Sequence record: PZ445537.1
Reading direction: 5' to 3' (one strand)
Length of the DNA: 45,054 nucleotides
Source of the DNA: a phage
Shown here: one piece after another, positions 1 to 45,054 of the stretch
How positions within the stretch are numbered: the stretch's first letter is position 1
Layout: each line of letters opens with the position of its first letter
Notes under the pieces: generated by a model
What the model saw: the letters and a program-made list of their open reading frames with translations, nothing else
What the model was told of the DNA's origin: nothing
Database searches by the model: none
Translations under genes and position numbers: made by a program

Positions 1-21
1 AATCCAGCAGATATTCAAAAC

Positions 22-213
22 ATGATCGACCGCTACGCTGCAGCCGAGCTGTCTGTTCTGGAGGGGAAATCAATCACTTTCAACGGGCAGCAGATGACGC
101 TCGAAAACCTGTCGGAAATCAGAAAAGGCCGTCAGGAATGGGAGCGACGACTGGCTACGCTCAATAACAAACGCCGCGGGCGACCCGGCTATAGGCTGGC
201 GAGGTTTGGATGA
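22..213 (+). CDS. gpW-like head-tail joining (head completion) protein
   Basis: 63-aa ORF directly after the terminase large-subunit frame; its stop overlaps the portal start (ATGA at 210-213); basic C-terminal tail; position matches lambda W. Assigned by synteny and size. Confidence 0.55.
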   Translation: MIDRYAAAELSVLEGKSITFNGQQMTLENLSEIRKGRQEWERRLATLNNKRRGRPGYRLARFG

Positions 214-1709
214 GTTTTTTAGATGATGCGATAGGCCTGTTTTCACCAGGCTGGAAAGCCTCACGCCTGCGTGCCCGCGCAGTTATTAAGGCGTATGAGG
301 CGGTAAAGCAAACGCGTACCCACAAAGCCCAGAAGGAAAATCGTTCAGCCGATCAGCTCAGCCAGATGGGGGCGGTTTCACTGAGGCAGCAGGCGCGCTG
401 GCTGGACAACAACCACGATCTGGTGATTGGCGTTTTCGACAAGCTGGAAGAAAGGGTGGTGGGTGCGAAGGGCATCATAGTTGAACCGCATCCGATGCTG
501 ACTAACGGGAAGATAGCTAAAAAGCTGGCCACTGATATCCGCAGAAAGTGGGGCGAATGGTCCGTAAGACCCGATGTTACAACCCAGTTTACCCGCCCCA
601 TGCTGGAGCGGCTGATGCTGCGAACGTGGCTCCGGGACGGTGAGGTATTTGCTCAGCTGGTTCGCGGTACCGGAAATGGTCTTCAGCCGGTTGCTGGCGT
701 GCCGTTCTGGCTGGAAGCGCTGGAGCCGGACTTCGTGCCGATGAACAGCGATGCCGCCACCCAGCTCAATCAGGGCGTTTTTGTCGATAACTGGGGGCGC
801 CCGAAAAAATATCAGGTCTATAAAAGCCTGCCAGTATCCGGGCGTCAGTTCGATACCAAAGAGATAGATGCAGAAAACATGCTTCATCTCAAATTCACAC
901 GACGCCTGCACCAGACCCGCGGAACGTCTCTATTGTCAGGTGTTCTGATGCGTCTGAGCGCGCTGAAAGAGTACGAGGACTCGGAGCTTACCGCTGCCAG
1001 AATTGCTGCCGCACTCGGCATGTATATCAAAAAAGGCGACGGACAGAGCTTCGAGTCTGATTCCAGCAGCGATGACCGCGAGCTGATGATTCAGCCCGGT
1101 ATGCTCTATGACGAGCTGCAGGCCGGGGAAGAAATCGGGATGATTAAATCCGATCGCCCGAACCCTAACCTAGAGTCGTTTCGTAACGGACAGCTGCGTG
1201 CCGTGTCCGCCGGCAGTCGCCTCAGCTTTTCCAGCACATCCAGAAACTACAACGGAACGTACAGTGCCCAGCGGCAGGAGCTTGTCGAGTCAACCGACGG
1301 ATATCTGATTCTTCAGGACTGGTTCATCGGTTCAGTGACCCGGCCCATGTACCGGGCCTGGCTGAAGATGGCTATTGCTGCCGGAGAAATCAAGCTGCCG
1401 AGAGGCATCGATATGGACTCGCTTTATAACGCGGTTTATTCGGGGCCCGTTATGCCGTGGATTGATCCCGTTAAAGAAGCGAATGCCTGGAAAACGCAGA
1501 TCCGCGGCGGTGCTGCTACTGAATCCGACTGGATACGTGCCAGCGGTCGCAACCCGGATGATGTTAAGTCACGCCGTAAAGCGGAGGTTGACGAGAACCG
1601 TGAACAGGGCCTGGTGTTTGACACCGACCCCGCCAATGATAAAGGAGGCACCAGTGCCGAAGCCAAAGAACCGGGCGCGCCACCGTCCGAAAGCCAGCGC
1701 AAAAAGTAA
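210..1709 (+). CDS. portal protein (lambda gpB position)
   Basis: 499-aa ORF between the gpW-like gene and the protease/capsid gene, translationally coupled to the upstream gene. Assigned by synteny and size; no search run. Confidence 0.8.
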   Translation: MSFLDDAIGLFSPGWKASRLRARAVIKAYEAVKQTRTHKAQKENRSADQLSQMGAVSLRQQARWLDNNHDLVIGVFDKLEERVVGAKGIIVEPHPMLTNGKIAKKLATDIRRKWGEWSVRPDVTTQFTRPMLERLMLRTWLRDGEVFAQLVRGTGNGLQPVAGVPFWLEALEPDFVPMNSDAATQLNQGVFVDNWGRPKKYQVYKSLPVSGRQFDTKEIDAENMLHLKFTRRLHQTRGTSLLSGVLMRLSALKEYEDSELTAARIAAALGMYIKKGDGQSFESDSSSDDRELMIQPGMLYDELQAGEEIGMIKSDRPNPNLESFRNGQLRAVSAGSRLSFSSTSRNYNGTYSAQRQELVESTDGYLILQDWFIGSVTRPMYRAWLKMAIAAGEIKLPRGIDMDSLYNAVYSGPVMPWIDPVKEANAWKTQIRGGAATESDWIRASGRNPDDVKSRRKAEVDENREQGLVFDTDPANDKGGTSAEAKEPGAPPSESQRKK

Positions 1710-1722: not shown

Positions 1723-3669
1723 ATGCAGGCCAGCAATAACAGCGAGGCCGACATTTTTATCTATGACGAAATCGGGTACTGGGGCGTAACGGCGAAACAG
1801 TTCGTCAATGATCTCCGGGCACTTGGGGACGTCACCCACATCAACCTTTATATCAACTCGCCAGGTGGTGATGTCTTCGACGGTATTGCTATTTATAACG
1901 CGCTGAAGCACCACGGCGCGGCGATTACCGTGCATATCGACGGTCTCGCGGCCTCCATGGCCTCGGTGATTGCGATGGTAGGCAATCCGGTCATCATGCC
2001 TGAAAACACGATGATGATGATCCATAAGCCCTGGGGGTTTGCTGGTGGTGACGCGAGCGATATGCGCGACTATGCGGATCTTCTCGACAAGGTTGAATCC
2101 GTTCTTATCCCTGCTTATGCGCAGAAAACCGGAAAATCCACCGAAGAAATTGCGGCAATGCTGGAGGACGAAACCTGGATGAACGGCAGCGAGTGCCTTG
2201 AACTGGGTTTTGCCGACCAGGTGACACCATCCCTTCAGGCTATGGCCTGTATTCATTCAAAACGTATTGAGGAATTTGAAAAAATGCCAAAAAGCATTCG
2301 CAACATGATCACCCCGCCGCGCAACACTACCCAGCGTGACCCGGTTATTACCCAGCCTCAGGCACCGCAGGCAAAAACAGACCCGGCACCGGATGAAAAT
2401 GTGATCCGCGCGCAGGTGTTGGCTGAGCAGAAAGCCCGTGTTAACGCTATCGGCGATCTCTTTGCCATGTTCGGCAATAAGCACATGGAACTGCAGAATC
2501 AGTGTGTGGCCGACCCTGATTGTTCCGTCGATAAGGCGAAAGATTTGCTGCTGGCAGAACTCGGTAAAACGGCCACGCCGTCCAATAAAACCACCCAGCC
2601 GCATATTCATGCGGGCAACGGTAACTTCGTCGCGGATGGTATTCGCCAGGCACTGATGGCGCGTGCCGGGTTCGAAGGTCAGGAGCGGGATAACGTTTAT
2701 AACGGTATGACGCTGCGCGAGTATGCGCGTATGGCCCTGACTGAAAAAGGTATCGGCGTGGCCAGCTACAACCCGATGCAGATGGTTGGTCTGGCGCTGA
2801 CCCACAGCACCTCTGACTTTGGCAACATTCTGCTTGATGTTGCGAACAAAGCGCTGATTCAGGGCTGGGACGAGGCGCAGGAAACCTTCGAGCAGTGGAC
2901 CAAAAAAGGCCAGCTGTCGGACTTCAAAACGGCGCATCGTGTCGGTATGGGTGGTTTCCCTTCTCTGCGACAGGTTCGCGAAGGGGCTGAGTACAAGTAC
3001 ATCACTACCAGTGACAAAGGCGAAACCATCGCGCTTGCCACGTATGGTGAAATCTTCTCAGTAACCCGCCAGGCGATCATCAACGACGATCTGAACCAGC
3101 TTACCGACGTACCGATGAAGATGGGGCGCGCGGCGAAAGCAACGATTGGCGATCTGGTTTACGCCATTCTGACCAAAAACCCGAAACTCTCAGACGGAAA
3201 GGCGCTGTTCCATGCCGATCACAAGAACCTGAGCTCGGGCGCAATTTCTGTGGCCAGCCTGGACGAATCGCGCAAGCTGATGCGTCTGCAGAAGGAGGGG
3301 GAGCGAACCCTGAATATCCGTCCGGCCTACATGCTGGTGCCCGTCGCCCTGGAAACTCTGGCAAATCAGACCATCAAGTCGGCCAGTGTTAAAGGTGCAG
3401 ACATCAATGCCGGGATCGTTAACCCTATCCAGAACTTTGCAGAAGTCATTGCCGAACCGCGCCTGGATGAAGCTGATGCGAAAGCCTGGTATCTGGCCGC
3501 CGCGAAGGGCACCGACACCATCGAGGTCGCTTATCTCAACGGCGTCGACACGCCATACATCGATCAGCAGGAAGGCTTCACCACTGATGGTATCGCCACG
3601 AAAGTGCGTATTGATGCAGGTGTGGCGCCGCTGGACTATCGCGGCATGACCAAATCCTCTGGTCAGTAA
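1723..3669 (+). CDS. prohead protease (ClpP/S14-like) fused to major capsid protein
   Basis: First ATG after the portal stop within a longer in-frame ORF from 1375. N-terminal part has ClpP-type serine protease motifs (SPGGDV, GLAASMAS, MIHKPWG); C-terminal ~330 aa is capsid-like. One continuous frame with no internal stop, followed by a strong terminator. Confidence 0.8.
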   Translation: MQASNNSEADIFIYDEIGYWGVTAKQFVNDLRALGDVTHINLYINSPGGDVFDGIAIYNALKHHGAAITVHIDGLAASMASVIAMVGNPVIMPENTMMMIHKPWGFAGGDASDMRDYADLLDKVESVLIPAYAQKTGKSTEEIAAMLEDETWMNGSECLELGFADQVTPSLQAMACIHSKRIEEFEKMPKSIRNMITPPRNTTQRDPVITQPQAPQAKTDPAPDENVIRAQVLAEQKARVNAIGDLFAMFGNKHMELQNQCVADPDCSVDKAKDLLLAELGKTATPSNKTTQPHIHAGNGNFVADGIRQALMARAGFEGQERDNVYNGMTLREYARMALTEKGIGVASYNPMQMVGLALTHSTSDFGNILLDVANKALIQGWDEAQETFEQWTKKGQLSDFKTAHRVGMGGFPSLRQVREGAEYKYITTSDKGETIALATYGEIFSVTRQAIINDDLNQLTDVPMKMGRAAKATIGDLVYAILTKNPKLSDGKALFHADHKNLSSGAISVASLDESRKLMRLQKEGERTLNIRPAYMLVPVALETLANQTIKSASVKGADINAGIVNPIQNFAEVIAEPRLDEADAKAWYLAAAKGTDTIEVAYLNGVDTPYIDQQEGFTTDGIATKVRIDAGVAPLDYRGMTKSSGQ

Positions 3670-12993: not shown

Positions 12994-13023
12994 TAAGACG
13001 CCATCATTAATACTAACAAATAA

Positions 13024-13045: not shown

Positions 13046-13057
13046 AATGGGGTAAAA

Positions 13058-17879: not shown

Positions 17880-17949
17880 TTCTACATTCCTGTAAATGCG
17901 GGAATATCCATTTTATTAGAGTTTAAAAAATAGTCAGATTGATATGAGC

Positions 17950-17984
17950 GATCAATTTTACATGATTGATCGTTTCAAACGATC
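17950..17984. promoter_or_regulatory. compound palindrome in divergent intergenic region
   Basis: GATCAAT-N8-ATTGATC (17950-17971) overlapping GATCGTTT-C-AAACGATC (17968-17984), between the reverse lipoprotein start (17879) and the tail fibre start (18006); three GATC sites. Confidence 0.4.
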
Positions 17985-18005
17985 GTTATTATCGTGAGGT
18001 AGTTC

Positions 18006-19292
18006 ATGCTTTATAACACTGGCACTATCGCTATTAACGGAAATACCGCAACCGGCACTGGCACAAACTGGACGGCACCGGCCAGCCAGGTTCGCGCTGG
18101 ACAGACGATTATCGTCATGTCTAACCCGGTCCAGATGTTCCAGATTTCATCCGTGAACAGCGCCACATCGATGACGGTTACGCCAGCTGCTTCCCCGGCG
18201 CTGAGCGGCCAGAAGTACGGCATTCTGGTATCAGACAATATCTCGGTCGATGGTCTGGCGCAGGCGATGTCTCAGCTCATCAAAGAGTATGACGAGAATA
18301 TCGGTGCGTGGGAGACCTTCGCTACCACATCAGCAAATCAGAGCATTACCGTGACCATCAACGGCACCGCCGTAACCATCCCTGGCATCGGGAAACTGGC
18401 GCAGAAAGGGAGCAACGGTGCGCTTGCAATCGCTGACGGCGGGACCGGGGCAACGAAGGCAGAAGACGCTCGCACAAACCTCGGTTTAGGAAGTAGTGCG
18501 TTGAAGAATTTGCAAAGCACAACCGAGGACAAAACGTCTGGGGCTGTTTTGCAGGTTGGAGCCTTCGGATTAGGTGCGGAGGCTCCAACGATCCCTGCTA
18601 ATGATGCGAATCAGATTGTTGGCTATAACGGTTTTGTTTCCGGTGCAGGGGCTCCTGGAACGAACTGGGTAAACGTGTACGGTCCCATGCTCGTTATGAG
18701 GAGAATCAGCGCGGTTGCTCAGGTCCAGGTAAACTCTGTTGGTGGATTGGCATCACGCTACGGTCTGGTTACGGATATGACCGTTAACAATGGCGGTGCA
18801 TGGTGTGTTCACTGGCATGACAGAAACACAACGGTGGACTCAAGCGGGTTCATAAAACGGGCTTCGCCTATCGTTAAGTTGTTTTTTGATGGAAGCTACG
18901 AAACAAATGATGAATCTGAGGGGTGCACAGTACGCCGTATCGAAACAGGCCAATATCTTATAGAAGGATGTCATGGCCTGAATGCTGAGGCTATTTGGGG
19001 CGGGGTTGATGGCGGTTTTGAGATACCCTCAGACCGTAATAAACAGCCGCTGATATGGCTGGATTATGAGGTAAATGCTGACGGATCGGTGCTGGTAAAA
19101 ACCTATCACCGCACACACCCGCAAGCGCCAGCGTTCGCCAGGAACGAGCTGCAGGGCATCAACGATGGCGACCCGGTCGACATTCCCCGCGATCAGTTTG
19201 TGTCCGTGCGCGTCGAAATGCCTGGCGATTCTCTGTACAACCAGAAACTCAGAGCCGTAGAGCTGATCCTTGCTGCTGATGAAGGTGAATAA
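18006..19292 (+). CDS. side tail fibre protein (constant N-terminus plus currently expressed distal cassette A)
   Basis: 428 aa; tail-fibre motif GGTGATKAEDARTNLGLG at aa ~142-159; the constant/variable junction coincides with crossover site S1; C-terminal ~130 aa nearly identical to inverted cassette D. Confidence 0.85.
   Translation: MLYNTGTIAINGNTATGTGTNWTAPASQVRAGQTIIVMSNPVQMFQISSVNSATSMTVTPAASPALSGQKYGILVSDNISVDGLAQAMSQLIKEYDENIGAWETFATTSANQSITVTINGTAVTIPGIGKLAQKGSNGALAIADGGTGATKAEDARTNLGLGSSALKNLQSTTEDKTSGAVLQVGAFGLGAEAPTIPANDANQIVGYNGFVSGAGAPGTNWVNVYGPMLVMRRISAVAQVQVNSVGGLASRYGLVTDMTVNNGGAWCVHWHDRNTTVDSSGFIKRASPIVKLFFDGSYETNDESEGCTVRRIETGQYLIEGCHGLNAEAIWGGVDGGFEIPSDRNKQPLIWLDYEVNADGSVLVKTYHRTHPQAPAFARNELQGINDGDPVDIPRDQFVSVRVEMPGDSLYNQKLRAVELILAADEGE
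18469..18494 (+). other. invertase crossover site S1 (hix/gix-like)
   Basis: CTCGCACAAACC-TC-GGTTTAGGAAGT: 12+2+12 architecture with AAACC/GGTTT flanking the core as in gix as recalled; lies inside the fibre gene and encodes ARTNLGLGS. Confidence 0.75.
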
Positions 19293-19309
19293 AGGTCGGT
19301 TTGGGAGAC
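19284..19309 (+). other. invertase crossover site S4
   Basis: GGTGAATAAAGG-TC-GGTTTGGGAGAC; shares the right half-site with S1; spans the stop of cassette A and the start of cassette B. Confidence 0.65.
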
Positions 19310-20131
19310 AGCGCCACAGCCAACTTCGGAAGCCTCGAGATCGGAGCCAAAAAACCTTCTTCAGCAAGCTTTGTTGATTTCCATTTTCTTGGCACCAACG
19401 ACTATGACGCGCGCATCCTGTGTGGTGGTAATTCTAATGGTGCCATGGGGAAAGGGGACTTCACTTTTTACGCGGGGAAATACGTTTTTATCGGCGATAG
19501 CTTTGAGTTTCGCAACCCCATTACCTGTCAAAATAGCATCAGCGCATCTGCAAAAATAGCGACCACTGCTGATATGGAATGCAAAACTAAAATCGCTGTT
19601 TTGGCACCGGCTGACAATCAAAATGCCCATGTATGGTTCTATGGCACAGGTGGGGCATCCAGGGGGGTTATTTATTCCGGGCAAACAGGAATTATTCAGA
19701 TCCGTCCCGACAATAATGATAACGGCGGCTCCAACGGATACTCTTTTGCATTTGGGGCCGATGGTAAGTTTACCTGCGTCACGATGAACCAGACCTCAGA
19801 TGAGCGAGTAAAATTCGATAAAGAGCCCGTCAGTAACGCTCTGGAGAAGATTTGTTCCCTGACGGGTTATACGTTCGGCATTCAGCTCACAGAATCTGAG
19901 TCGGTACGTAGCGCAGGCATCATCGCACAGGAACTGGAGCAGGTTCTGCCGATCGCTGTGAGTTCTGGCGGCACCGGAACAACACCTGCAGGAGAGGAAA
20001 TTAACGATCTCAAAACCGTGGACTACAGCGCAATGAGCGCCCTCTACGTTGAGGCAATCAAGGAATTAACCAACCGGTTGAAAAGTGTTGAGAGCGAACT
20101 TACTGCAATACGTGACCGCTCAAACGCTTAG
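19301..20131 (+). CDS. silent tail fibre distal cassette B with C-terminal intramolecular chaperone (S74-like) domain
   Basis: 276 aa counted from TTG inside S4; no RBS or ATG; frame opens right at the crossover site; C-terminus has the self-cleaving chaperone signature (SDERVKFD...GIIAQELEQVLPIAV...VDYSAMSALYVEAIKEL). Confidence 0.7.
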   Translation: MGDSATANFGSLEIGAKKPSSASFVDFHFLGTNDYDARILCGGNSNGAMGKGDFTFYAGKYVFIGDSFEFRNPITCQNSISASAKIATTADMECKTKIAVLAPADNQNAHVWFYGTGGASRGVIYSGQTGIIQIRPDNNDNGGSNGYSFAFGADGKFTCVTMNQTSDERVKFDKEPVSNALEKICSLTGYTFGIQLTESESVRSAGIIAQELEQVLPIAVSSGGTGTTPAGEEINDLKTVDYSAMSALYVEAIKELTNRLKSVESELTAIRDRSNA

Positions 20132-20781
20132 TTTCTTGTCTTATCTTCTAAAGCCCCGACGCGGATTGCCAGGGCTTTTATCGCGGCCAGCGCATCGAGC
20201 AACATGGGGGTCTGGTCGAGATGCAGCAGGCCGCCAATATCTTTGACGTATTCAGGGTCGATAGTTTCAATCTGCTGAGATATCACCCCGCGCCGTGGGG
20301 TCTGCGTTTCATCATCCTTAAAAGTGAAGTGTTTGAACTCCATCCGTGAAATGTTGCCCAGCGCCTCTTCTGGATCGAGGTCGTCACCAATATTTTTCAT
20401 AATTCTGTCTGAAACTGCAGACGTCATTATCTCCTTCCATGGGCTCCATGTATCAGTGTTGTAACCCCTGAAAAAAAACCTTCCCGCATCAGTTTTGTTG
20501 GCATACGGCAAGCAGAACTGCGTCAAGGCTACATCAGGAATACGAACATAATTTTGAACATACCCATACCAGCTGGTGATAGGTCCTGAAGTTGATTTCG
20601 CCATATCTAACAGCAAACGATATGTACCAGGTTCAGTCAGGGCATTGAAATTTGTCCCGTCAGGAGCAACTGCCATATCTGTTTTAAAGGCTCTGGCATC
20701 ACCAGTTGGCAACCCGAATGCCCCCACCTGCATGACGTTCCCGGCTGCGCCGCCTGCATCCAGCGTGGCGCTACTTCCCAA
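20128..20781 (-). CDS. silent tail fibre distal cassette C (inverted) with chaperone-like C-terminus
   Basis: 217 aa on the minus strand beginning inside site S2 (GLGSSATLDAGGAAGNVMQVGAFGL); C-terminus resembles an S74-type chaperone domain (SDRIMKNI...GVISQQIE); stop codon overlaps cassette B's stop tail to tail. Confidence 0.7.
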   Translation of the reverse strand: MGSSATLDAGGAAGNVMQVGAFGLPTGDARAFKTDMAVAPDGTNFNALTEPGTYRLLLDMAKSTSGPITSWYGYVQNYVRIPDVALTQFCLPYANKTDAGRFFFRGYNTDTWSPWKEIMTSAVSDRIMKNIGDDLDPEEALGNISRMEFKHFTFKDDETQTPRRGVISQQIETIDPEYVKDIGGLLHLDQTPMLLDALAAIKALAIRVGALEDKTRN

Positions 20782-20798
20782 ACCGACCTTTATTCACC
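20773..20798 (-). other. invertase crossover site S2 (inverted relative to S1)
   Basis: Minus-strand sequence GGTGAATAAAGG-TC-GGTTTGGGAAGT; 23 of 26 nt identical to S4. Confidence 0.7.
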
Positions 20799-21527
20799 TT
20801 CATCCGTAGTCATTGCCAGTTCTGTGGCCCTGAGTTTTTGGTTGTACAAAGAATCGGCAGGCATCTCGACACGGACGGACAAAAACTGGTCATGGGGGAT
20901 ATCGACCGGATCGCCATTGTTGATACCCAGCAGTTCGTTCCTGGCGAACGCTGGCGCGTCAGGATACGTGCGGTGAAAGGTTTTCACCAGCACCGAGCCG
21001 TCAGCGTTAACCTCATAATCCAGCCAGATCAGCGGCTGCTTGTTACGGTCTGTAGGAATGTCAAAACCGCCATCGATTCCGCCCCAGGCTGCGTCAGAGT
21101 TCAACCCTTCACACCCTTCGATAAGATACTGCCCTACGTCCAGACGGATGACCTTTATGCCTTCGGATTCATCATTGGTTTGGTATGCACCATCCGAAAA
21201 TACTTTCACCACAGGCGATGCTGCTTTCAGTGTGCCATCGCTGGCCCTCGTGGTATTGCCCGTGGTGTAAGCCTCCTGATATGACCAGGACGTGCCACCG
21301 TAATACGAAAACCACGTCCGCCTTAGAATGTAGGCCTGATGAATACGGGTTGGTCGGCTGCCCCGATTGACGACTATAGACGTAATACCGGTATTTGCAG
21401 TTAACCCGAGCTGGGTCTGTCCGTCATTTTGATGGGAGGAGAAACAGGTCGGTGTAAATGCGTCCATAGCGTCCAACAGTGGGCCGTCTCCGTTGATAGT
21501 TCCAAGCCCAAATGCGCCCACTTGCAT
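20790..21527 (-). CDS. silent tail fibre distal cassette D (inverted)
   Basis: 245 aa from ATG 21527; the same frame stays open upstream to site S3 (…LGSSATKDVGTTAGNIMQVGAFGL); C-terminal ~130 aa (NDESEG…DEGE) nearly identical to cassette A, forming a long imperfect inverted repeat. Confidence 0.75.
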   Translation of the reverse strand: MQVGAFGLGTINGDGPLLDAMDAFTPTCFSSHQNDGQTQLGLTANTGITSIVVNRGSRPTRIHQAYILRRTWFSYYGGTSWSYQEAYTTGNTTRASDGTLKAASPVVKVFSDGAYQTNDESEGIKVIRLDVGQYLIEGCEGLNSDAAWGGIDGGFDIPTDRNKQPLIWLDYEVNADGSVLVKTFHRTYPDAPAFARNELLGINNGDPVDIPHDQFLSVRVEMPADSLYNQKLRATELAMTTDEGE

Positions 21528-21566
21528 GATGTTCCCGGCAGTCGTTCCGACGTCCTTTGTCGCGCT

Positions 21567-21592
21567 ACTTCCTAAACCGACGTTTTATAGAT
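21567..21592 (-). other. invertase crossover site S3 (inverted relative to S1)
   Basis: Minus-strand sequence ATCTATAAAACG-TC-GGTTTAGGAAGT; right half plus next 6 nt (GGTTTAGGAAGTAG.GCG) identical to S1; preceded by an in-frame TAA. Confidence 0.75.
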
Positions 21593-21657
21593 TGCCCTGG
21601 GGCAGCCTGGCCGATAACGTCACCTGATTTTTTCTTACAAAAAGGTGACTAAAAAAC

Positions 21658-22212
21658 ATGCAATATGGGTATGCAAGGGTATCAACTTTTGACCAAAATC
21701 TTGAATTACAGTTAGAGGCGCTAAATCGGTCAGAATGTGACCAGATATTTGAGGATAAAATATCCGGAGCGAAGTCAAAACGTCCTGGCCTGGATAAGAT
21801 GATGAAGTTATTGCGGCCAGGTGACACCGTCATCGTCTGGAAGCTAGACCGGCTCGGTCGATCACTCATACACCTCGTCGATTTACTGCGCTATTTCCGG
21901 GCTAATAATATTGAATTTGTCTCAATCACTGAGGGAATAAGGATCAGCACGTCAATCGGCAGATTCGCATACACAATGTTGAGTGCTGCGGCTGAGATGG
22001 AAAGAGAAAATATTATTGAAAGAACAAGGGCAGGTTTAGCCGTGGCAAGGGCAAAAGGGAGAATAGGTGGGAGGCGTCCAAAGTTAACACCAGAACAATG
22101 GGCGCAGGCTGGGAGATTAATATCAAACGGCGTGGATAGAAAACAGGTGGCAATAATTTATGATGTGGCTGTATGCACGCTTTATAAAAAATTTCCGGTG
22201 GGGCAGGCTTAA
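21658..22212 (+). CDS. serine recombinase, DNA invertase (Hin/Gin/Cin/Pin family)
   Basis: 184 aa; N-terminal catalytic motif YARVSTFDQ; RPGL…GDT-VVWKLDRLGRS block matches Hin as recalled; C-terminal HTH; sits just outside the invertible segment as gin/cin/pin do. Confidence 0.9.
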   Translation: MQYGYARVSTFDQNLELQLEALNRSECDQIFEDKISGAKSKRPGLDKMMKLLRPGDTVIVWKLDRLGRSLIHLVDLLRYFRANNIEFVSITEGIRISTSIGRFAYTMLSAAAEMERENIIERTRAGLAVARAKGRIGGRRPKLTPEQWAQAGRLISNGVDRKQVAIIYDVAVCTLYKKFPVGQA

Positions 22213-22254
22213 ATGATTAAAGGGCAGCTTCTGGATAGGCTGCCCGTCAAAGTA

Positions 22255-22518
22255 TTATCCATTTTGCCGGACAGTTGGGAATTCAGACGTCAGCCACATG
22301 TCGGATTCATCAAACATTTCCTCCAGCATACGGTTCAGCTTTTCCCGATCACTTTTGCTGGCATCACTATTTAAGCCGTTCGCCTGCATCGGCTTTACCT
22401 TCACTTCGGCATCAGGAAAAATCTGGTGCACCCGCTTCGTTAGTTCAGCCAGGATGATCTCTCTGGCCCCTTGGAGCCCTTCAACATTTCGCTTGTCATA
22501 AACCAGTTCAACAAACAT
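22255..22518 (-). CDS. dinI: DinI-like DNA-damage-inducible protein
   Basis: 87 aa from the ATG with RBS GAGAGGA (track ORF extends further upstream); acidic C-terminus and overall pattern fit the DinI family; promoter carries an SOS box. Confidence 0.7.
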   Translation of the reverse strand: MFVELVYDKRNVEGLQGAREIILAELTKRVHQIFPDAEVKVKPMQANGLNSDASKSDREKLNRMLEEMFDESDMWLTSEFPTVRQNG

Positions 22519-22576
22519 ACCGATCCTCTCATAAGTGAAAAATGCCTGTGCTTGATCTGATTTCATAAAAATACTA

Positions 22577-22592
22577 CTGTATATGTATACAG
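22577..22592. promoter_or_regulatory. LexA (SOS) box within divergent promoter
   Basis: CTGTATATGTATACAG (CTGT-N8-ACAG) embedded in the minus-strand promoter TTGACT-17 nt-TATTTT for the dinI-like gene; also directly upstream of the plus-strand ORF at 22618. Confidence 0.7.
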
Positions 22593-22617
22593 TCAATAAG
22601 CGAGTGAGGGTGCGTTC

Positions 22618-22857
22618 ATGCCTCGTCAACCGGATATTCGTGCTGCTTTTATTGCGGCCATACAGCAAAACCCGAAGGGCTATCTCTGCCTGCATACAGA
22701 CAGATTCATCACTGAACTGCAGGAGAGGCACTGGCATTTCAGCCAGGCGGATGCAAATTCATGGATCGAACGATACCAGCCAGACTTCGCCGATAAGACG
22801 ACAAACGGAAGTGAGAACCGATACTGGATCCTGCGTAACATGGGGAGGGTTTTCTAA
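22618..22857 (+). CDS. hypothetical protein
   Basis: 79-aa ORF with RBS GAGTGAGGG; divergent from the dinI-like gene across the SOS box. Confidence 0.45.
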   Translation: MPRQPDIRAAFIAAIQQNPKGYLCLHTDRFITELQERHWHFSQADANSWIERYQPDFADKTTNGSENRYWILRNMGRVF

Positions 22858-23177
22858 TGGGGTTTCCATCGCCAGCCATGGATTACCAGGAGCAGCGCAT
22901 GACGATAGATGTTATCTGCGGTGTAGATAACAACTGCCGGGTTATTGAAACTTCATGCGGCTGGGCCGTTATAAACGTCAGTCTTAAGCCAGAAGGAGGG
23001 GATACGTTGCTGGTTAGCATGGACGGGAGAAACCAGTTCGTGAAGCTAATGGGCCACGCCCTGATCACTCAAGATGGTGAAGCGATAGAAGGGGAAGCTT
23101 TGAATGACGTAATGGTACACGGCGTTCTTACACATACACTTAACCAAGTAAAAGACGATAAATCGCCTGTAATGTAG
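22857..23177 (+). CDS. hypothetical protein
   Basis: 106-aa ORF starting at an ATG that overlaps the upstream stop (TAATGG). Confidence 0.45.
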   Translation: MGFPSPAMDYQEQRMTIDVICGVDNNCRVIETSCGWAVINVSLKPEGGDTLLVSMDGRNQFVKLMGHALITQDGEAIEGEALNDVMVHGVLTHTLNQVKDDKSPVM

Positions 23178-23249
23178 CGTGTAAATGTCGGGGATTATTC
23201 CCCCATTTTTCCCCAATGATTCCCCGTACAAATTTCAAACATAAAAAAA

Positions 23250-23272
23250 CCAGCCATAAGTGGCTGGTTTTG
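23250..23272. terminator. bidirectional intrinsic terminator next to attP core
   Basis: A-run, hairpin CCAGCCATAAGTGGCTGG (23250-23267), then TTTTG; on the minus strand it lies just 3' of the tRNA fragment. Confidence 0.6.
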
Positions 23273-23282
23273 ATAATAATTT

Positions 23283-23328
23283 TGGTCGGCACGAGAGGAT
23301 TTGAACCTCCGACCCCCGACACCCCATG
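23283..23328 (-). other. attP core: 3' ~46 nt of a tRNA gene (tRNA-Pro-like)
   Basis: Minus strand reads CATGGGGTGTCGGGGGTCGGAGGTTCAAATCCTCTCGTGCCGACCA: anticodon-arm remnant, T-arm and acceptor 3' strand with CCA, but no 5' half. Identity to tRNA-Pro is from memory. Confidence 0.6.
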
Positions 23329-23384
23329 TCACTGCGTTAAAGCCGCTGCAACCCTTGTAAATACTGGTGCTACGGCATGTTTGA

Positions 23385-23400
23385 CTGTATATGCAAACAG
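23385..23400. promoter_or_regulatory. second SOS-box-like palindrome near attP
   Basis: CTGTATATGCAAACAG (CTGT-N8-ACAG) preceded by TTGACT and followed by ATTTTT, closely paralleling the dinI promoter; no obvious downstream ORF. Confidence 0.4.
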
Positions 23401-23464
23401 TGCATTTTTTGCAAAATCCGCACTATATACATCAATGAGTTACGGGTAGGTTTTTCCCCATACA

Positions 23465-24652
23465 TCACCCGGCTTTAAAGACAATTTCAGCATGAGGAAC
23501 TTCTACCCATTCAACATGATTCTGGGTATAAATTTTTGTCGATTTTGCATCACTATGGGCCATCCTTGCCTGCGGATCGATACCTTGTCTTTCGAAAATA
23601 TGAGCCGCCAGCGCTCTAATCTCGTGGAAAGTTGGCCTTTCTTTGATAGGTAATTCTGCCGCTACACCTATCCGGTCCCGCAGCTCTGAAAATGCTCTGC
23701 TCAAATAATCAGGGGCCACCTGTGTTGGGTGGTTAACTTCCTTGCTTATAGGATTGCTTCTCTTTTCCAGAAGCCGGTGAACAACATAAGGACTGGCCAC
23801 ATTGTCTCTGCTGTTGTCGATGATCTCTTTCAGGGCCCTGCCGATCGGAATGGCAACGTGTGAGGCCTCTTTGTGCTGCACTTTTTGCCGATGAATGTAA
23901 AGCGTTCCGAATATTCCAGCCTCTTCCTGATCTAACCATACACATCCGCAAACCCCTTCTTTAGGTTCCTTGATCGAGTACCGGATCCGGGAAACTTCCA
24001 GGCGCGCTTGCGTAGTTTGTATTGCAAGGTCCATTGCAGTCTTCAGCCAAGGTTCAGCAGCTGCATGTATGGCCAGGAACTGCTCCAAAGTAAGTCGCCG
24101 GCGGACCTTTTTATCGACACGCCGCATTTTTTTCCGTGTTGCAGGATTATCCATCATTAGCGATTCATCCACAGCATAAGAGAATAGCTTTTTCAGGAAG
24201 CTAACTTTTCGGTTCTGAACATTGGCCGACGATTCAGAATGGTAATTTCGTATGTAGGCATTTACGTGCTCAAGCTCAATGTCACACGCGGGTATGTTAT
24301 TAAAAAATTCTTTAACCCTGATGGCATCATTATTCCAATCGTCAAGTGTGCTTTTAGACGGCTGCTCATCTTTGATCGCTCTCTCCATAATGCGATCAAC
24401 ATGTTCAGAAAACGGGTGGGCTTCACCATTAAGCCCTCCCGATTCCCGAATTAATGAATCTATCGATGGTGTGTTTTCAGGGCGCATCCTCAGGTTATAT
24501 TCTCGGGCGATGGCGATAGCCATTACTCGATCCGAACCGAGAGTTTTCTTTTTCCCAGTTATAAGCGTGAACTTATACACGCCACGATCTTTATCAAAAA
24601 AAAGATAATCAGGAAGGTGGCGGTATTCTTTTTTTCGTGGCCTTGCTGCCAT
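23465..24652 (-). CDS. int: tyrosine integrase (lambda Int family)
   Basis: 395 aa from ATG 24652 (RBS GAGGG; track start 24658 is TTG); C-terminal catalytic region HEIRALAAH…RMAHSDAKSTKIYT fits the R-H-R-Y pattern; adjacent to the attP core. Confidence 0.95.
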   Translation of the reverse strand: MAARPRKKEYRHLPDYLFFDKDRGVYKFTLITGKKKTLGSDRVMAIAIAREYNLRMRPENTPSIDSLIRESGGLNGEAHPFSEHVDRIMERAIKDEQPSKSTLDDWNNDAIRVKEFFNNIPACDIELEHVNAYIRNYHSESSANVQNRKVSFLKKLFSYAVDESLMMDNPATRKKMRRVDKKVRRRLTLEQFLAIHAAAEPWLKTAMDLAIQTTQARLEVSRIRYSIKEPKEGVCGCVWLDQEEAGIFGTLYIHRQKVQHKEASHVAIPIGRALKEIIDNSRDNVASPYVVHRLLEKRSNPISKEVNHPTQVAPDYLSRAFSELRDRIGVAAELPIKERPTFHEIRALAAHIFERQGIDPQARMAHSDAKSTKIYTQNHVEWVEVPHAEIVFKAG

Positions 24653-24654
24653 GG

Positions 24655-24864
24655 TCAACCCTCAATTATTAACTGACGTACCGCCTGATTAACAATTGAG
24701 TCAACTCCCCACTTTTCGGTTTCATAGACAAAAACTGAACCATCTACAATCCTTCCCATGAGTAATCCGTTTTCGACCCAACGTTTAATTGTACGGTTGT
24801 CAGGAATGGAGTCTTTAGTAAACTCGCGCTTACTCCAGAGACTCGCTTTCATTAGCTTTGCCAT
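24655..24864 (-). CDS. xis: excisionase-like protein
   Basis: 69 aa from ATG 24864 (RBS GAAGGA); TIKRWVENG…GSVFVYETE resembles the Xis DNA-binding fold; stop abuts the int start. Confidence 0.65.
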   Translation of the reverse strand: MAKLMKASLWSKREFTKDSIPDNRTIKRWVENGLLMGRIVDGSVFVYETEKWGVDSIVNQAVRQLIIEG

Positions 24865-24908
24865 GGTTTCCTTCTCCATAAAGCCCGGCTGCACCCGGGC
24901 TGAGTGGT

Positions 24909-25481
24909 TTACTCGTTGGTGCTGGTGGCAGGGATAAGTTTCTGCCAAATTGCTGACACATATTTTGCCTGATGGCGCGCATCAGCTAGGGCATTATGCA
25001 CATCGCCAATGAAAGGCATGTCACGCTTCGGATCGAAACCAACACTGCGACCGAGGGTAACAATCGTGCGAACATCATGATCGTTCCAAAATTCCCACGG
25101 GCAAATGCGTCCGGCGCGTTCGTAAGCTCCGCGCAGAATCACATTGTCAAAGGTGGCACCGTTACCCCAGACCTTCATGTATTTTGGGTTATCTGCGTGC
25201 CGGTGAATGAAATGGCTCAGTTCCGACAAAGCATCAGTGATAGGCAGCGCATCATCAACACAAATAGCTGAGCGCGCTTCCGGGCTTTGTTTTAGCCACC
25301 AAAGAATCGTGTCTCCATCCGGTACCGCGCCTTGATCCATTGCGCTTTCAAGCGAGACGGCCGTATAGAATTCTTGGCCAAGTTCACCTGTGTGAGGGTT
25401 AAAAAAGACGGCACCAATTGAGACGATTGGCGCGTTTGGTTTTTTGCCCATTGATTCAAGGTCGATCATTAAATTGTTCAT
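24909..25481 (-). CDS. DEDDh-type 3'-5' exonuclease (DnaQ-like fold)
   Basis: 190 aa; N-terminal Exo I motif MIDLESMGK…PIVSIGAV and C-terminal H-x4-D (HNALADARH). Confidence 0.65.
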   Translation of the reverse strand: MNNLMIDLESMGKKPNAPIVSIGAVFFNPHTGELGQEFYTAVSLESAMDQGAVPDGDTILWWLKQSPEARSAICVDDALPITDALSELSHFIHRHADNPKYMKVWGNGATFDNVILRGAYERAGRICPWEFWNDHDVRTIVTLGRSVGFDPKRDMPFIGDVHNALADARHQAKYVSAIWQKLIPATSTNE

Positions 25482-25493
25482 TATAAATATCCC

Positions 25494-26246
25494 TTATATT
25501 TCAAATGCCATTTGAGGCATGAAACGATCACGATCTGCGTCGTACTGCAATGAGCTGGCACTGTTGTATGCCTCTATGCGCTCAACCAGAACCGCTGCTC
25601 GTGTTTCTTTGCTTGCAGGCGCGTAGGCTGATTTATCCCATGCCTTGTCGATGCCAATATTGCGCGCCACGTTTGTACTGTCAGCTGACGACAGCGGGAT
25701 GTGACGGAATATATCGGCGTTAAGCATGCGCAGGCCATGAAGCTTTGTTATGGGGTAACCATTATTGTCGACAACATGCCGTATAAGATCTCGCAATTTT
25801 GCCCTGCATGAGCGTGGACGTTTCGCGTCGTATTCACCCATGCTACCGATGCATACCCTGGGGAATTCATGGCATAAGCGGATGAAACGCTCGTCAGGCT
25901 CGTTGAAGTGGTAAACTGGCGCGCCGACAACCTTACCGTGCGGCCATTCAGCTATTAACGCATCATTCTCTTCACTGGTCCCGCCGATCACGTCAGGGAT
26001 AACAGCAAAAGCAAAGCGCGGGTGATTCAACCAGCGGCCCACAAACTCGTAGTAATCATTCCAGTTAACAACGCGCTTTTTTGTCCAGAAGCTGAATGCG
26101 CCGTTATCCAGCGCAAAAGACTGGGTGACTTCGCTTGCAAGAGCTAATTGACCTGGATTAGCGAAGGAAATAAAAGCGTGCCTGCCTTTCCACGCCTTCA
26201 GTGCGCATGTATCAGGGGTTATTGGCCCGCCGTGAAAATGTATCAT
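25494..26246 (-). CDS. conserved hypothetical phage protein
   Basis: 250 aa from the ATG in ATGA overlap with the upstream TraR-like gene (track ORF extends to 26303); no motif recognised. Confidence 0.55.
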   Translation of the reverse strand: MIHFHGGPITPDTCALKAWKGRHAFISFANPGQLALASEVTQSFALDNGAFSFWTKKRVVNWNDYYEFVGRWLNHPRFAFAVIPDVIGGTSEENDALIAEWPHGKVVGAPVYHFNEPDERFIRLCHEFPRVCIGSMGEYDAKRPRSCRAKLRDLIRHVVDNNGYPITKLHGLRMLNADIFRHIPLSSADSTNVARNIGIDKAWDKSAYAPASKETRAAVLVERIEAYNSASSLQYDADRDRFMPQMAFEI

Positions 26247-26470
26247 CCTCCACCCCTGCGCTGTCTCTGCATTATTTCTAAATATTCCTGGCAACTGGCG
26301 CACGTTTTGCAGCCAGGCATTGCAACCCGGCGCGCCTCAGGAATGTCCTCTCCGCATTCAGAACAGTGCTCTGCAGAGACTGCATTCTGATCAATACGGT
26401 GTTTTTGTATGGCCAACTGCAGGCGGTGCTCTAACAGCTCGTTTGCCTGATCGATGATGTCTGAACTCAT
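26243..26470 (-). CDS. TraR/DksA-family C4 zinc-finger protein
   Basis: 75 aa with CSECGEDIP…GCKTCASC (CxxC-N17-CxxC) typical of phage TraR-like proteins. Confidence 0.7.
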   Translation of the reverse strand: MSSDIIDQANELLEHRLQLAIQKHRIDQNAVSAEHCSECGEDIPEARRVAMPGCKTCASCQEYLEIMQRQRRGGG

Positions 26471-39760: not shown

Positions 39761-40813
39761 ATGAAAAATACTGTAAATATAAACAGTGTTGAGCTTGTCA
39801 ACGCTGACTGCCTGCTATACCTCGCAACCCTCCCAGATAACACCATTGACCTTATTGTTACGGATCCGCCGTACTTCAAAGTGAAACCCAACGGCTGGGA
39901 CAATCAATGGAAAGGGGATGAGGATTATCTTCGCTGGCTTGATATGTGCCTCGCACAATTCTGGCGAGTGCTAAAACCTGCTGGCAGTCTTTATCTTTTC
40001 TCCGGTCACCGCCTGGCGGCAGACATTGAGATCATGATGCGTGAGCGGTTCAACGTCCTGAACCACATCATCTGGGCTAAACCGTCGGGCCGCTGGAATG
40101 GCTGTAATAAAGAGAGCCTGCGCTCTTACTTCCCTGCAACAGAGCGCATCCTCTTCGCTGAGCATTACCAGGGGCCGTATAAACCAAAGAGCGACGGTTA
40201 CGCGGAGAAGGGAAGCGAGCTGAAGCAGCATGTAATGACTCCCCTAATTTCTTATTTTCGGGATGCACGTGAAGCGCTTGGCATATCCTCAAAACAAATA
40301 GCCGATGCGACTGGAAAGAAGAACATGGTGTCTCACTGGTTCAGCGGTAGCCAGTGGCAATTACCGAATGAATCAGATTACCGGAAGCTTCAGTCCCTTT
40401 TCACGCAGGTAGCCATCGAAAAGCACCAGAACGGCGAACTGGCAACACCACACCACCAGCTGGTGGCTATGTGGCATTCGTTGAATCGCAAGTATTCAGA
40501 GCTGCTCGAAGAGTACAAATCACTTCGGCGGCATTTCTCTGTTTCCGTATCCGTTCCTTATACCGACGTCTGGACACATAAACCCGTTCAGTTTTATCCA
40601 GGTAAACACCCATGCGAAAAACCCGCTGACATGTTGCGGCAGATCATCAACGCCAGCAGTAAGCCTGGTGATGTGGTGGCTGATTTCTTTATGGGGTCCG
40701 GTTCGACCGTGAAAGTCGCGCTGGAACTTGGCCGCCAGGCTATTGGCGTTGAACTCGAAGAGGAAAGGTTTAATCAGACGATGGGGGAAATACGGGCGTT
40801 GGCAGGGGAATAA
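39761..40813 (+). CDS. DNA methyltransferase (N6-adenine/N4-cytosine, beta class)
   Basis: 350 aa; catalytic motif VTDPPYF near the N-terminus and AdoMet motif FFMGSGST near the C-terminus. Confidence 0.85.
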   Translation: MKNTVNINSVELVNADCLLYLATLPDNTIDLIVTDPPYFKVKPNGWDNQWKGDEDYLRWLDMCLAQFWRVLKPAGSLYLFSGHRLAADIEIMMRERFNVLNHIIWAKPSGRWNGCNKESLRSYFPATERILFAEHYQGPYKPKSDGYAEKGSELKQHVMTPLISYFRDAREALGISSKQIADATGKKNMVSHWFSGSQWQLPNESDYRKLQSLFTQVAIEKHQNGELATPHHQLVAMWHSLNRKYSELLEEYKSLRRHFSVSVSVPYTDVWTHKPVQFYPGKHPCEKPADMLRQIINASSKPGDVVADFFMGSGSTVKVALELGRQAIGVELEEERFNQTMGEIRALAGE

Positions 40814-42253: not shown

Positions 42254-42337
42254 TGCAGCATTCATCGAAAAAGCACATCAAATGCTATCGGTAATCATTA
42301 TCATTTGATGGGTCCTCCCGGCGGGGTGGCCTACCAC

Positions 42338-42353
42338 GGGGCGGCGCCGCGGG
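42338..42353. other. candidate cos (cohesive-end) site
   Basis: GGGGCGGCGCCGCGGG then AAACGGCTAGTTTTTCG, resembling the lambda left end as recalled; contains the 10-bp palindrome GCGGCGCCGC; ~110 bp upstream of the small terminase gene. Confidence 0.35.
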
Positions 42354-42452
42354 AAACGGCTAGTTTTTCGAATCCAGGGTCATCATCATCATGTGCGCAG
42401 GTCTTTGATTTAATTAGAGGCCATTTTCGCAAGATGTCGAATCGTTCAAAAA

Positions 42453-42953
42453 GTGTTCACCATCATGGACCAGGAAATTGCCACTTTAAAACTCAATATC
42501 AACCAGCTGGCAGGGATAACCGGCGTACACCGTCAGACGGTTGCCGCGAGACTGAAAAATGTTGAACCTGCTCCAGGCAGCAACAGCAAGTTAAAGCTCT
42601 ATCTTGTGACCGAAATTCTGACCGAACTGATGATCCCTACCGTTTCGGCCAACATCGATGATATGCCCCCCTCTGACAGGCTGTCCCACTGGAAAGCAGA
42701 GAATGAGAGGCTGAAGTTCGAACAGGATACGGGGCAGTTAATACCCGCAGATGAAGTGGCGCGAGAATTCTCATTGATGGCGAAAGCCGTCGTCATGGTA
42801 CTTGAAACCCTCCCGGATGTGCTCGAGCGCGACTGTGCTTTAACGCCTGCTGCGGTAGTTCGTGTGCAAAGCGTTATTGATGATCTGCGCGACCAGATGG
42901 CGGAGAGGGTGCAGGACGCTGAAAAAGAGGAGGAAGAGCCTGAGGAGGACTGA
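42453..42953 (+). CDS. terminase small subunit (Nu1-like, N-terminal HTH)
   Basis: 166 aa (ATG 42465 is an alternative start); N-terminus MDQEIATLKLNINQLAGITGVHRQTVAARL resembles the Nu1 winged-HTH; acidic C-terminus; stop overlaps the large-subunit start (TGATG). Confidence 0.7.
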   Translation: MFTIMDQEIATLKLNINQLAGITGVHRQTVAARLKNVEPAPGSNSKLKLYLVTEILTELMIPTVSANIDDMPPSDRLSHWKAENERLKFEQDTGQLIPADEVAREFSLMAKAVVMVLETLPDVLERDCALTPAAVVRVQSVIDDLRDQMAERVQDAEKEEEEPEED

Positions 42954-45054
42954 TGGCAAAGCGGGCATCCGCCAGGGACATCCGCCGCGATGTCTCCGGT
43001 ATTTTACGAGCCCCGCGTCGTATGCCGGTGGCCGATGCGGTCAGTACTTATATGCGCGTGCCAATGGGGGCGGGAAACTCAGTTCCATGGGATCCGGATC
43101 TGGCACCCTATGTGATTGAGCCGATGAACTGCCTGGCATCGCGTGAATACGATGCGGTGGTGTTTGTGGGCCCAGCGCGAACGGGTAAAACCATCGGGCT
43201 GATTGACGGCTGGATTGTTTATAACATTGTCTGCGATCCGGCAGATATGCTTGTGATTCAGGTATCTGAGGAAAAAGCTCGCGAGCATTCCAAAAAACGC
43301 CTGGACCGTACTTTTCGCTGTAGCCCTGAAGTTAAAACCCGGCTAAGCCCAAGACGTAACGATAACAACGTCTACGACCGTACATTCCGCGCCGGTAACT
43401 ATCTGAAGCTTGGCTGGCCATCCGTCAATATCATGTCGTCCTCGGACTATAAGAGTGTGGCGCTGACGGATTATGACCGCTTTCCGGAAGATATCGACGG
43501 GGAGGGGGATGCTTTTTCACTGGCATCGAAGCGTACCACGACATTCATGTCCTCCGGGATGACGCTGGTTGAAAGCTCGCCCGGGAGGGATATCAGAGAC
43601 ACAAAATGGCGGCGTTCCACGCCCCATGAAGCCCCTCCGACCACCGGAATTTTATCGCTCTATAACCGTGGTGACCGCCGTCGTCTTTACTGGCCATGCC
43701 CGCATTGCGGCGAATATTTCCAGCCGGAAATGGACAATATGACCGGGTACCGCGACAGCAGCGATCCTGTGCTTGCCAGCGAAGCGGCTTTTCTACAGTG
43801 CCCGGCCTGTAAAGGCAGGATCACACCGGACATGAAGCGTGCGCTTAACATGAAATGTGTCTGGCTCCGGGACGGGCAAACCATCGACAGGAAAGGCCAG
43901 GTTAGCGGTGATGGCCGTCGTTCCCGTATTGCCTCCTTCTGGATGGAAGGTCCGGCAGCTGCTTACCAGACCTGGGCGCAGCTTATTTATAAGTTCCTGA
44001 CCGCCGAGCAGGAATATGAATCCACGCGCAGCGAAGAAACCCTGAAGACGGTGATCAACACCGATTTCGGCAGGCCCTATTTGCCGCGGGCCAGCATGGA
44101 GCAGCGTAAAAGTGAATTGCTCGAGCAGCGTGCCGAAGAAGTCCCAAAACGTTCGGTACCCGATGGCGTGCAGTTTCTCACTGCGACCGTGGACGTGCAG
44201 GCCGGGCGCAACCGGCGCTTTGTTGTGCAGATTACGGGTTATGGAAGTATGGGTGAGCGCTGGATAGTTGACCGTTACAACATCCGGCATTCGCTGCGCT
44301 GCGACGGCAACGGGGAAAGCATTCAGGTGGATCCGGCGAGCTATCCGGAGGACTGGGATCTTTTACTCACCGACGTCTTTGATAAAACGTGGCCACTCGC
44401 AACTGACCCGTCAAAGGGCATGCGGCTGATGTCGATGGCCGTGGACTCAGGGGGTGAAGATGGCGTGACGGATAATGCCTACAAATTCTGGCGCAGATGT
44501 CGCCGTGAGGGGCTGGGTAAGCGTATCTATCTCTTCAAGGGGGACAGCGTCAGGCGCAGCAAACTTATCCAGCGAACGTTTCCCGACAACACGGGCAGAT
44601 CAACGCGCCGCGCACAGGCGACGGGTGATGTGCCTCTTTATCTTCTCCAGACCGATGCCCTTAAAGACCGGGTGAATAATGCGCTGTGGCGTGATTCACC
44701 CGGCCCTGGCTATGTGCATTTCCCCGCCTGGCTGGGCAGCTGGTTCTATGACGAACTGACGTATGAGGAACGCTCGAATGAAGGGAAATGGAGTAAGCCC
44801 GGCCGGGGCGCAAACGAAGCATTTGACCTGCTCGTTTATGCCGACGCGCTCGCCATCCTTAGTGGTTACGAAAAAATCAAATGGCCGTCAGCTCCTGAGT
44901 GGGCACGGCGGGAAACGTGGATCGAGGACACGCAGACGGAAACTGGCGAAATGCCATCCCCGCCGCCTGCGCCGAAATCTAAATCAAAACCAAAACGTGA
45001 GAAGCCCGTAACCGAGCAGGCTAATCCGTGGTCTTCGTCAGGAGGTTGGGTGTG
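42953..45054 (+). CDS. terminase large subunit (lambda gpA family), open at window end
   Basis: Frame open for 700 codons from ATG 42953 to the last base; absent from the ORF track because it has no stop in the window; Walker A VFVGPARTGKT; the final TG plus window base 1 (A) would give TGA. Confidence 0.9.
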   Translation, partial: MAKRASARDIRRDVSGILRAPRRMPVADAVSTYMRVPMGAGNSVPWDPDLAPYVIEPMNCLASREYDAVVFVGPARTGKTIGLIDGWIVYNIVCDPADMLVIQVSEEKAREHSKKRLDRTFRCSPEVKTRLSPRRNDNNVYDRTFRAGNYLKLGWPSVNIMSSSDYKSVALTDYDRFPEDIDGEGDAFSLASKRTTTFMSSGMTLVESSPGRDIRDTKWRRSTPHEAPPTTGILSLYNRGDRRRLYWPCPHCGEYFQPEMDNMTGYRDSSDPVLASEAAFLQCPACKGRITPDMKRALNMKCVWLRDGQTIDRKGQVSGDGRRSRIASFWMEGPAAAYQTWAQLIYKFLTAEQEYESTRSEETLKTVINTDFGRPYLPRASMEQRKSELLEQRAEEVPKRSVPDGVQFLTATVDVQAGRNRRFVVQITGYGSMGERWIVDRYNIRHSLRCDGNGESIQVDPASYPEDWDLLLTDVFDKTWPLATDPSKGMRLMSMAVDSGGEDGVTDNAYKFWRRCRREGLGKRIYLFKGDSVRRSKLIQRTFPDNTGRSTRRAQATGDVPLYLLQTDALKDRVNNALWRDSPGPGYVHFPAWLGSWFYDELTYEERSNEGKWSKPGRGANEAFDLLVYADALAILSGYEKIKWPSAPEWARRETWIEDTQTETGEMPSPPPAPKSKSKPKREKPVTEQANPWSSSGGWV

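Follow-up and report, generated by a model that had tools for sequence, protein, structure and literature searches.

The ends of the sequence and the terminase frame

Does a reading frame that runs off the last base of a phage sequence and is completed by its first base mean that the sequence is a complete circular genome, and what, if anything, happens biologically at such ends? The question is raised by PZ445537.1, a stretch of 45,054 nucleotides of phage DNA that was analysed over its full length and is called the window here. Near its end, the frame of the large terminase subunit (TerL) opens with an ATG (42953-42955) that overlaps the TGA of the small-terminase ORF upstream (ATGA), and continues through 700 sense codons, up to 45052, without a single stop. 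The final bases of the window are TG. When its end is joined to its start, the sequence reads ...GGT TGG GTG TGA, where TGA is codon 701 and its A is base 1.

The original prediction saw in this closure, together with the gene content, the sign of a complete circular phage genome. By itself, a stop codon completed in this way is expected by chance in about 1 case in 4, which favours another reading: the window could be part of some larger replicon, for example a chromosome carrying the phage as a prophage, in which case the frame or bacterial DNA would continue past the end and the meeting of TG with A would be fortuitous. An untrimmed circular assembly would be expected to carry a terminal direct repeat; none is present at the window ends, and no direct repeats of at least 40 nt were found within the window.

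Identity with phage Eeyore

A megablast search of window positions 20001-45000 against GenBank phages gave one record with 100% coverage and 100% identity, that of Escherichia phage Eeyore (PP925821.1), a 45,057-bp 'complete genome' from a phage isolated from river water in the USA. Base-by-base comparison with the full record showed that window positions 1-19444 correspond to Eeyore 25614-45057 with 100% identity, and positions 19445-45054 to Eeyore 1-25613 with 99.99% identity and a single 3-nt indel at 42348. This indel, a GCT present in Eeyore and absent from the window inside cosN, is the sole difference between the 45,054 and the 45,057 bp. After rotation, all 45,054 bases are shared, as are gene content and gene order.

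The two records also differ in where they were opened. Window position 45054 is Eeyore 25613 and window position 1 is Eeyore 25614, so that nothing is missing or duplicated at the junction; the Eeyore TerL CDS (23512..25614) ends there, with base 1 of the window as the last base of its stop codon. Identity is 100% over the join, and the frame does close across the window ends as had been proposed. The Eeyore record, for its part, was opened within a tail-fibre ORF (window 19301-20131), at window 19444/19445, where the window reads through. Each record thus closes the other's break, as is expected when one circular assembly is opened arbitrarily on two occasions.

The proposal of a complete circular genome is therefore borne out, the window being a rotation of a 'complete genome' record with ends that abut exactly. 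We consider it almost certain that the window represents the entire Eeyore genome once, as an opened circle, and that the phage is a temperate lambdoid siphovirus whose virion ends are expected at cos. Since this phage was already deposited, the genome itself was already known. It was published in Science in 2024 from Illumina reads assembled into a single contig with SPAdes 3.15.0 (PMC7617280). The window is not literally the GenBank Eeyore sequence, its cosN being 3 nt shorter.

The larger replicon fares poorly in this comparison, as the Eeyore record is only 3 nt longer and reads through the join without extra bases. A terminase frame continuing past the window end, or bacterial genes beside either end, had been named as signs against a circle; the homologous TerL genes all stop at the same codon, and no bacterial genes adjoin. 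Prophage-host junctions, moreover, lie at attP (~23284-23329) and not at the window ends. The Eeyore comparison and the unbroken junction found in phage records and in E. coli prophages (see below) refute this reading, to which we give practically no chance.

Judged from the sequences compared, the closure of the TerL frame is real and not due to chance, but it is ordinary, because the window is the Eeyore circle cut within the TerL stop codon. No biological event takes place at the window ends, and the position of the cut is without biological meaning: the circle was opened arbitrarily, and only the last base of the large-terminase gene lies beyond the break. Since the cut coincides with the final base of the TerL CDS, the break may plausibly not be random but stem from a rotation by coordinates that was off by one.

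The junction in independent records

We built a 475-nt junction probe from the window end and the window start. It matches unbroken, at 98.7-100%, in nine phage records: Eeyore, Flotzy, three records of mEp213, three of mEp043, and LLS. In all nine, the probe sits under the same succession of annotations, namely terminase large subunit, small protein and portal. The probe is also unbroken in 32 of 5,426 complete E. coli genomes, inside prophages. An 80-nt junction probe, for which up to 12 mismatches were allowed, was found in 28 of 74 IMG/VR loci that a cos pattern (given below) had retrieved, and the mismatches seen numbered 0-3. Two metagenome contigs carry gene calls of 700 aa and 71 aa, with a 4-nt overlap, at the junction.

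These data bear on the possibility of an assembly chimera made by a false join or a wrong rotation of unrelated contig ends, in which case the true genome would differ at the junction. The 3-nt difference from GenBank Eeyore does point to a different assembly or processing route. However, the junction is intact in independently sequenced phages (mEp213 twice, mEp043 and LLS), in prophages and in metagenomes. A chimera is refuted by these independent records, and its probability is negligible.

Terminase, adaptor and portal genes

TerL (42953..45054, plus strand, with a TGA made of 45053-45054 and base 1) is a 700-aa protein that its domains and homologues place in the GpA family. Pfam domains GpA_ATPase (PF05876) and GpA_nuclease (PF20454) match residues 41-304 (E=1.6e-73) and 326-644 (E=1.5e-83), respectively, and BLASTP aligns the protein with lambda gpA at 24% identity (E=1e-17). 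Gene callers gave the same length of 700 aa in mEp213, LLS and the two metagenome contigs. A GpA-family large terminase with both ATPase and endonuclease domains is what characterizes a lambda-like cos phage. Only about 3 of the 45,054 positions of the window lie as near to the TerL end as the cut does. Upstream, the small terminase subunit (42465..42953, plus strand, 162 aa) starts at ATG 42465; it is annotated as such in Eeyore, LLS and mEp213, and matches Pfam DUF1441 (E=3.9e-41). The mEp213 annotation has an alternative GTG start for this gene, at 42453.

On the other side of the junction, a gpW-like gene had been placed at position 22. A small gene does follow TerL, but ATG 22 is probably the wrong start: the gene most likely begins, to judge from its sequence context, at the GTG of 45052-45054 (plus strand), which lengthens the frame and makes it overlap the TerL stop (GTGA). 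This GTG is preceded by a Shine-Dalgarno sequence, AGGAGG at 45040-45045, with a 6-nt spacer, whereas no comparable ribosome-binding site lies upstream of ATG 22. The remainder of the gene, codons 2-71 and the stop, occupies positions 1..213 of the plus strand and shares base 1 with the TerL stop. A 71-aa adaptor with the 4-nt overlap is annotated in both mEp213 (2600..2815) and LLS (2717..2932). The two metagenome contigs have ATGA at this place, a change that is synonymous in TerL (GTG to GTA) and converts the adaptor start from GTG to ATG. The PHROG 118 profile, 'head-tail adaptor', covers residues 1-70 of the product (E=1.3e-32); because it aligns from residue 1, the seven N-terminal residues belong to the family. 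Given the GTG start, the window edge would cut two overlapping genes, TerL and the adaptor.

Is the adaptor a member of the gpW family? As a statement of homology the gpW label fails, since the protein gives no Pfam gpW match, BLASTP does not align it with lambda W, and its PHROG is 118, that of lambda W being 75. We thus rejected membership of this family. By its position and annotated role, the adaptor is best described as a positional and functional analogue of lambda gpW, with no detectable homology. It is followed by a 499-aa portal protein of the lambda family (210..1709, plus strand; Pfam Phage_portal_2, E=4e-82).

The overall layout is that of lambda Nu1-A-W-B: a cos site, a small terminase, a GpA terminase, a small adaptor overlapping the TerL stop, and a lambda-family portal. 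Beside the adaptor, several components of this module differ from their lambda counterparts. TerL, at 24% identity to gpA, is 59 aa longer, the small terminase is one that matches DUF1441, and the head module has a ClpP protease fused to the capsid protein where lambda has the C/Nu3/D/E genes.

Closer relatives are mEp213 and mEp043, both of the genus Aguilavirus, and LLS. Their packaging and head genes closely match those of Eeyore: cos, both terminases, the 71-aa adaptor and the portal are 97-99.6% identical, and the 4-nt TerL/adaptor overlap is shared. The early, immunity, replication and tail-fibre regions, in contrast, form a mosaic and for the most part differ, and window positions 20001-45000 are covered to only about 10% by mEp213 and mEp043 and to 43% by LLS. 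Among the phage records that span the junction, some were opened at or near cos (LLS, mEp213). LLS was sequenced by Nanopore and PCR.

The cos site and the expected ends of the virion DNA

If nothing happens at the window ends, where are the ends of the packaged chromosome? We aligned the cos regions of the window, Eeyore, both mEp213 records and Flotzy with the end-to-start junctions of LLS and lambda. The aligned order of elements is a conserved GGGTCCT, a spacer of about 22 nt, ACG, the cohesive-end sequence and CGCGGG. In the window, the segment that precedes the nick site (42310..42338, plus strand) corresponds by homology to the right end of lambda DNA, as seen in the alignment with lambda, mEp213, LLS, Flotzy and Eeyore, and the GGGTCCT at 42310-42316 aligns with an identical heptamer in lambda. 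By comparison with lambda cos and with published work (PMC4669245), this segment is a putative cosQ region. A cosN-like nicking site, GGGCGGCGC followed by CGCGGG, lies at 42339..42353 (plus strand) and is defined by the LLS annotation, the alignment, the 3-nt difference from Eeyore and the IMG/VR matches. The interval from cosN to the small-terminase gene (42354..42464, plus strand) is the place where lambda has cosB, a correspondence of position; between Eeyore, Flotzy, mEp213 and LLS it is conserved at 97-99%, and lambda cosB cannot be aligned to it.

In the relatives, a 12-nt cohesive end, GGGCGGCGCGCT, precedes CGCGGG, whereas lambda has GGGCGGCGACCT. The left half of cosN, GGGCGGCG, and the flanks ACG (left) and CGCGGG (right) are identical to those of lambda, and the differences fall at cohesive-end positions 9 and 10 in this phage group. 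The LLS record (PQ299149.1) opens at window position 42339 and bears the annotation of a '5' extended single-strand cohesive site GGGCGGCGCGCT'. The LLS authors deduced the 12-nt 5' overhang GGGCGGCGCGCT of LLS and mEp213 from the type of terminase and from homology, and state that it agrees with the putative mEp213 cos (PMC12315714). Both the homology of cosN and its position, about 110 nt upstream of the small terminase, fit lambda; the window has 9 nt where the relatives have 12.

We also searched IMG/VR with the pattern CACGGGGCGGCGC-N{0,3}-CGCGGGAAACGG and obtained 75 matches, all 75 of them with a 3-nt variable part, which was GCT in 60, GCA in 9, ACT in 4 and ACG in 2. In natural lambda-like cosN sites, variation has been described as confined to cohesive-end positions 10-12 (PMC4669245).

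Could the circular map instead reflect headful (pac) packaging, with virion genomes that are circularly permuted and terminally redundant rather than ended at cos? Pac phages, too, yield closed circles when assembled from short reads, and the circle agrees with such packaging. However, a pac phage would have a pac-type terminase and no cos, and what we find is a GpA-type terminase, with both GpA domains and recognizable similarity to lambda gpA (24% identity), and a conserved cosN. Lambda cosN and its left flank have a close homologue here, about 110 nt ahead of the small terminase gene, and the 75 IMG/VR loci conserve cosN with variation only at cohesive-end positions 10-12, the published pattern (PMC4669245). 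The only assembly discrepancy in 45 kb, furthermore, falls exactly in cosN. We regard headful packaging as very improbable.

With packaging from cos as the preferred reading, the cut would be made at cosN and the overhang would have the length seen in the homologous sites: by homology with lambda, mEp213 and LLS, the packaged DNA is expected to be linear and to carry 12-nt 5' cohesive ends, with its termini at ~42338/42339. The term 'circular' would then be true of the assembly and of the replicative, intracellular form, and not of the packaged chromosome.

A three-nucleotide gap in cosN

Compared with GenBank Eeyore, both mEp213 records, LLS and the two metagenome contigs, cosN in the window lacks 3 of 12 nt (GCT). 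The one other sequence in which we found the short form is that of Flotzy in GenBank, a sister isolate that was handled in the same study with the same pipeline. It is absent from the 5,426 complete E. coli genomes, where the best match to an 80-nt probe (95.2%) corresponds to the gap plus one mismatch, and from all 75 IMG/VR matches. The short form creates a perfect 10-bp palindrome, GCGGCGCCGC.

The simplest reading is that the gap is probably an artefact of assembly or library preparation at the physical ends of virion molecules, which would indirectly support cos as the true terminus. As written in the window, cosN may not be functional. Alternatively, the 3-nt-shorter GGGCGGCGC followed by CGCGGG may be a real allele of the Eeyore and Flotzy stocks. 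We find this unlikely; if true, it would mean that a lambda-type terminase tolerates or makes a stagger of 9 nt instead of 12 nt. The gap serves as a warning that short-read assemblies of cos phages can err exactly at the physical ends.

Integration site and gene content

The attP core (23284..23329, minus strand) is 46 nt long and identical to the 3' 46 nt of the tRNA-Pro gene proL, located between yejM and yejO. ARAGORN detected no complete tRNA in the window; the core is a 46-nt 3' fragment of tRNA-Pro and was located through prophage junctions. A tyrosine integrase with a lambda-type arm-binding domain (23465..24658, minus strand) is encoded nearby, with 135 nt between its 3' end and the attP core, and is supported by Pfam matches (Arm-DNA-bind_1, Phage_integrase, Phage_int_SAM_5) and by the Eeyore annotation. 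A tyrosine integrase beside an attP that shares its core with the host attB is the hallmark of an integrating temperate phage. Prophage matches in E. coli genomes start at ~23231 on the integrase side and end at ~23328-23340 on the tail-fibre side, and related prophages sit between yejM/proL and yejO. As the attP core is the proL 3' end, prophage boundaries would fall there and not at the window ends. Both attP (23284-23329) and the cos-like site (~42339) are thus internal to the window, in agreement with the original prediction.

The further claim that every lambdoid module occurs once also holds. An inventory drawn from the Eeyore annotation and the Pfam results contains single copies of the small and large terminase, adaptor, portal, ClpP protease-capsid fusion, tail genes, tape measure and tail tip, as well as tail fibres, invertase, integrase, CI-like repressor, replication genes, Q-like antiterminator, holin, endolysin and spanin.

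Proposed cycle and consequences for annotation

In lambda-like phages, the cohesive ends of injected DNA anneal and are ligated to form a circle. In Eeyore, the circle would either integrate at proL through Int and attP (23284-23329) or replicate into concatemers. The small terminase would bind beside cosN, where the GpA subunit would nick the DNA (~42339) with a 12-nt stagger; the terminase would then move the DNA through the portal into the prohead and cut at the next cos. The circular sequence would be the picture that an assembly gives of this lambda-like cycle.

For practical purposes, the window can be treated as a complete, single-copy phage genome, in which the TerL stop and the adaptor start are to be annotated across the join. 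The biological ends of the chromosome belong at cos (~42339).

Packaging site and head genes

The predicted nicking site for lambda-like packaging, cosN (42339-42353), reads GGGCGGCGC|CGCGGG in the window, which is 3 nt fewer than in GenBank Escherichia phage Eeyore (PP925821.1) and in mEp213 and LLS, two phages with closely related packaging genes. The site is likewise longer by 3 nt than the window's in all 75 IMG/VR matches and in two metagenome contigs; among the sequences compared, the short form is common only to the window and Flotzy (PP925827.1), a sister isolate of Eeyore. A perfect 10-bp palindrome, GCGGCGCCGC, arises from this short form, which is probably an artefact at physical DNA ends.

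The head-tail adaptor gene starts at a GTG at position 45052, behind a Shine-Dalgarno sequence (AGGAGG, 45040-45045), and runs on through 1-213. Its start codon overlaps the stop of the large terminase gene (TerL) as GTGA, and related contigs have ATGA in place of GTGA at this overlap. The ATG at 22, chosen as the start in the original prediction and also in the GenBank Eeyore annotation, is instead internal to the gene. In a single long ORF (1375-3669), a ClpP-type protease domain at residues 112-284 is fused to a major capsid domain (Phage_capsid_4) at residues 459-761. Lambda, by contrast, has separate C, Nu3, D and E genes. The ORF is labelled simply 'head maturation protease' in GenBank.

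Tail-fibre cassette and attachment site

Window positions 18861-22212 likely constitute an invertible tail-fibre cassette. Tail-fibre and assembly ORFs in opposite orientations are enclosed by 457-nt inverted arms (18861-19317 and 20765-21221) that are 78% complementary, and a serine invertase with Resolvase and HTH_7 domains (21658-22212) adjoins these arms and ORFs. The layout is similar to that of the Mu G, P1 C and e14 P segments.

Moron-like accessory genes occupy 22255-23177, between the invertase and attP. One of them encodes a protein of 159 aa that carries a DinI domain at its C-terminus; adjoining it is a small ORF that is UmuD-like according to the GenBank Eeyore annotation.

The attP region (23231-23329) comprises the 3' 46 nt of the tRNA-Pro gene proL (23284-23329) and a hairpin similar to the terminator that follows proL in the host. 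Related prophages in E. coli are located between yejM/proL and yejO. All complete E. coli genomes (5,426 of 5,426) match some part of a probe spanning 22200-24700, attP segment included.

Putative DNA modification genes

Three DNA methyltransferase-type genes occur in this one 45-kb phage (32594-35858 and 39761-40813). The first region encodes a 444-aa protein with an N-terminal Dam domain, named PAPS reductase in GenBank, and, from an overlapping gene, a 663-aa protein with a C5-cytosine methylase domain; the third gene (39761-40813), directly upstream of the lysis genes, encodes an N6_N4 methylase of 350 aa.

An ORF on the minus strand (25494-26303) is annotated 'queuine tRNA-ribosyltransferase' in GenBank Eeyore, and a Pfam search of it returned nothing at E<=0.001. 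The annotated label would suggest a putative DpdA-like enzyme, involved in 7-deazaguanine DNA modification.
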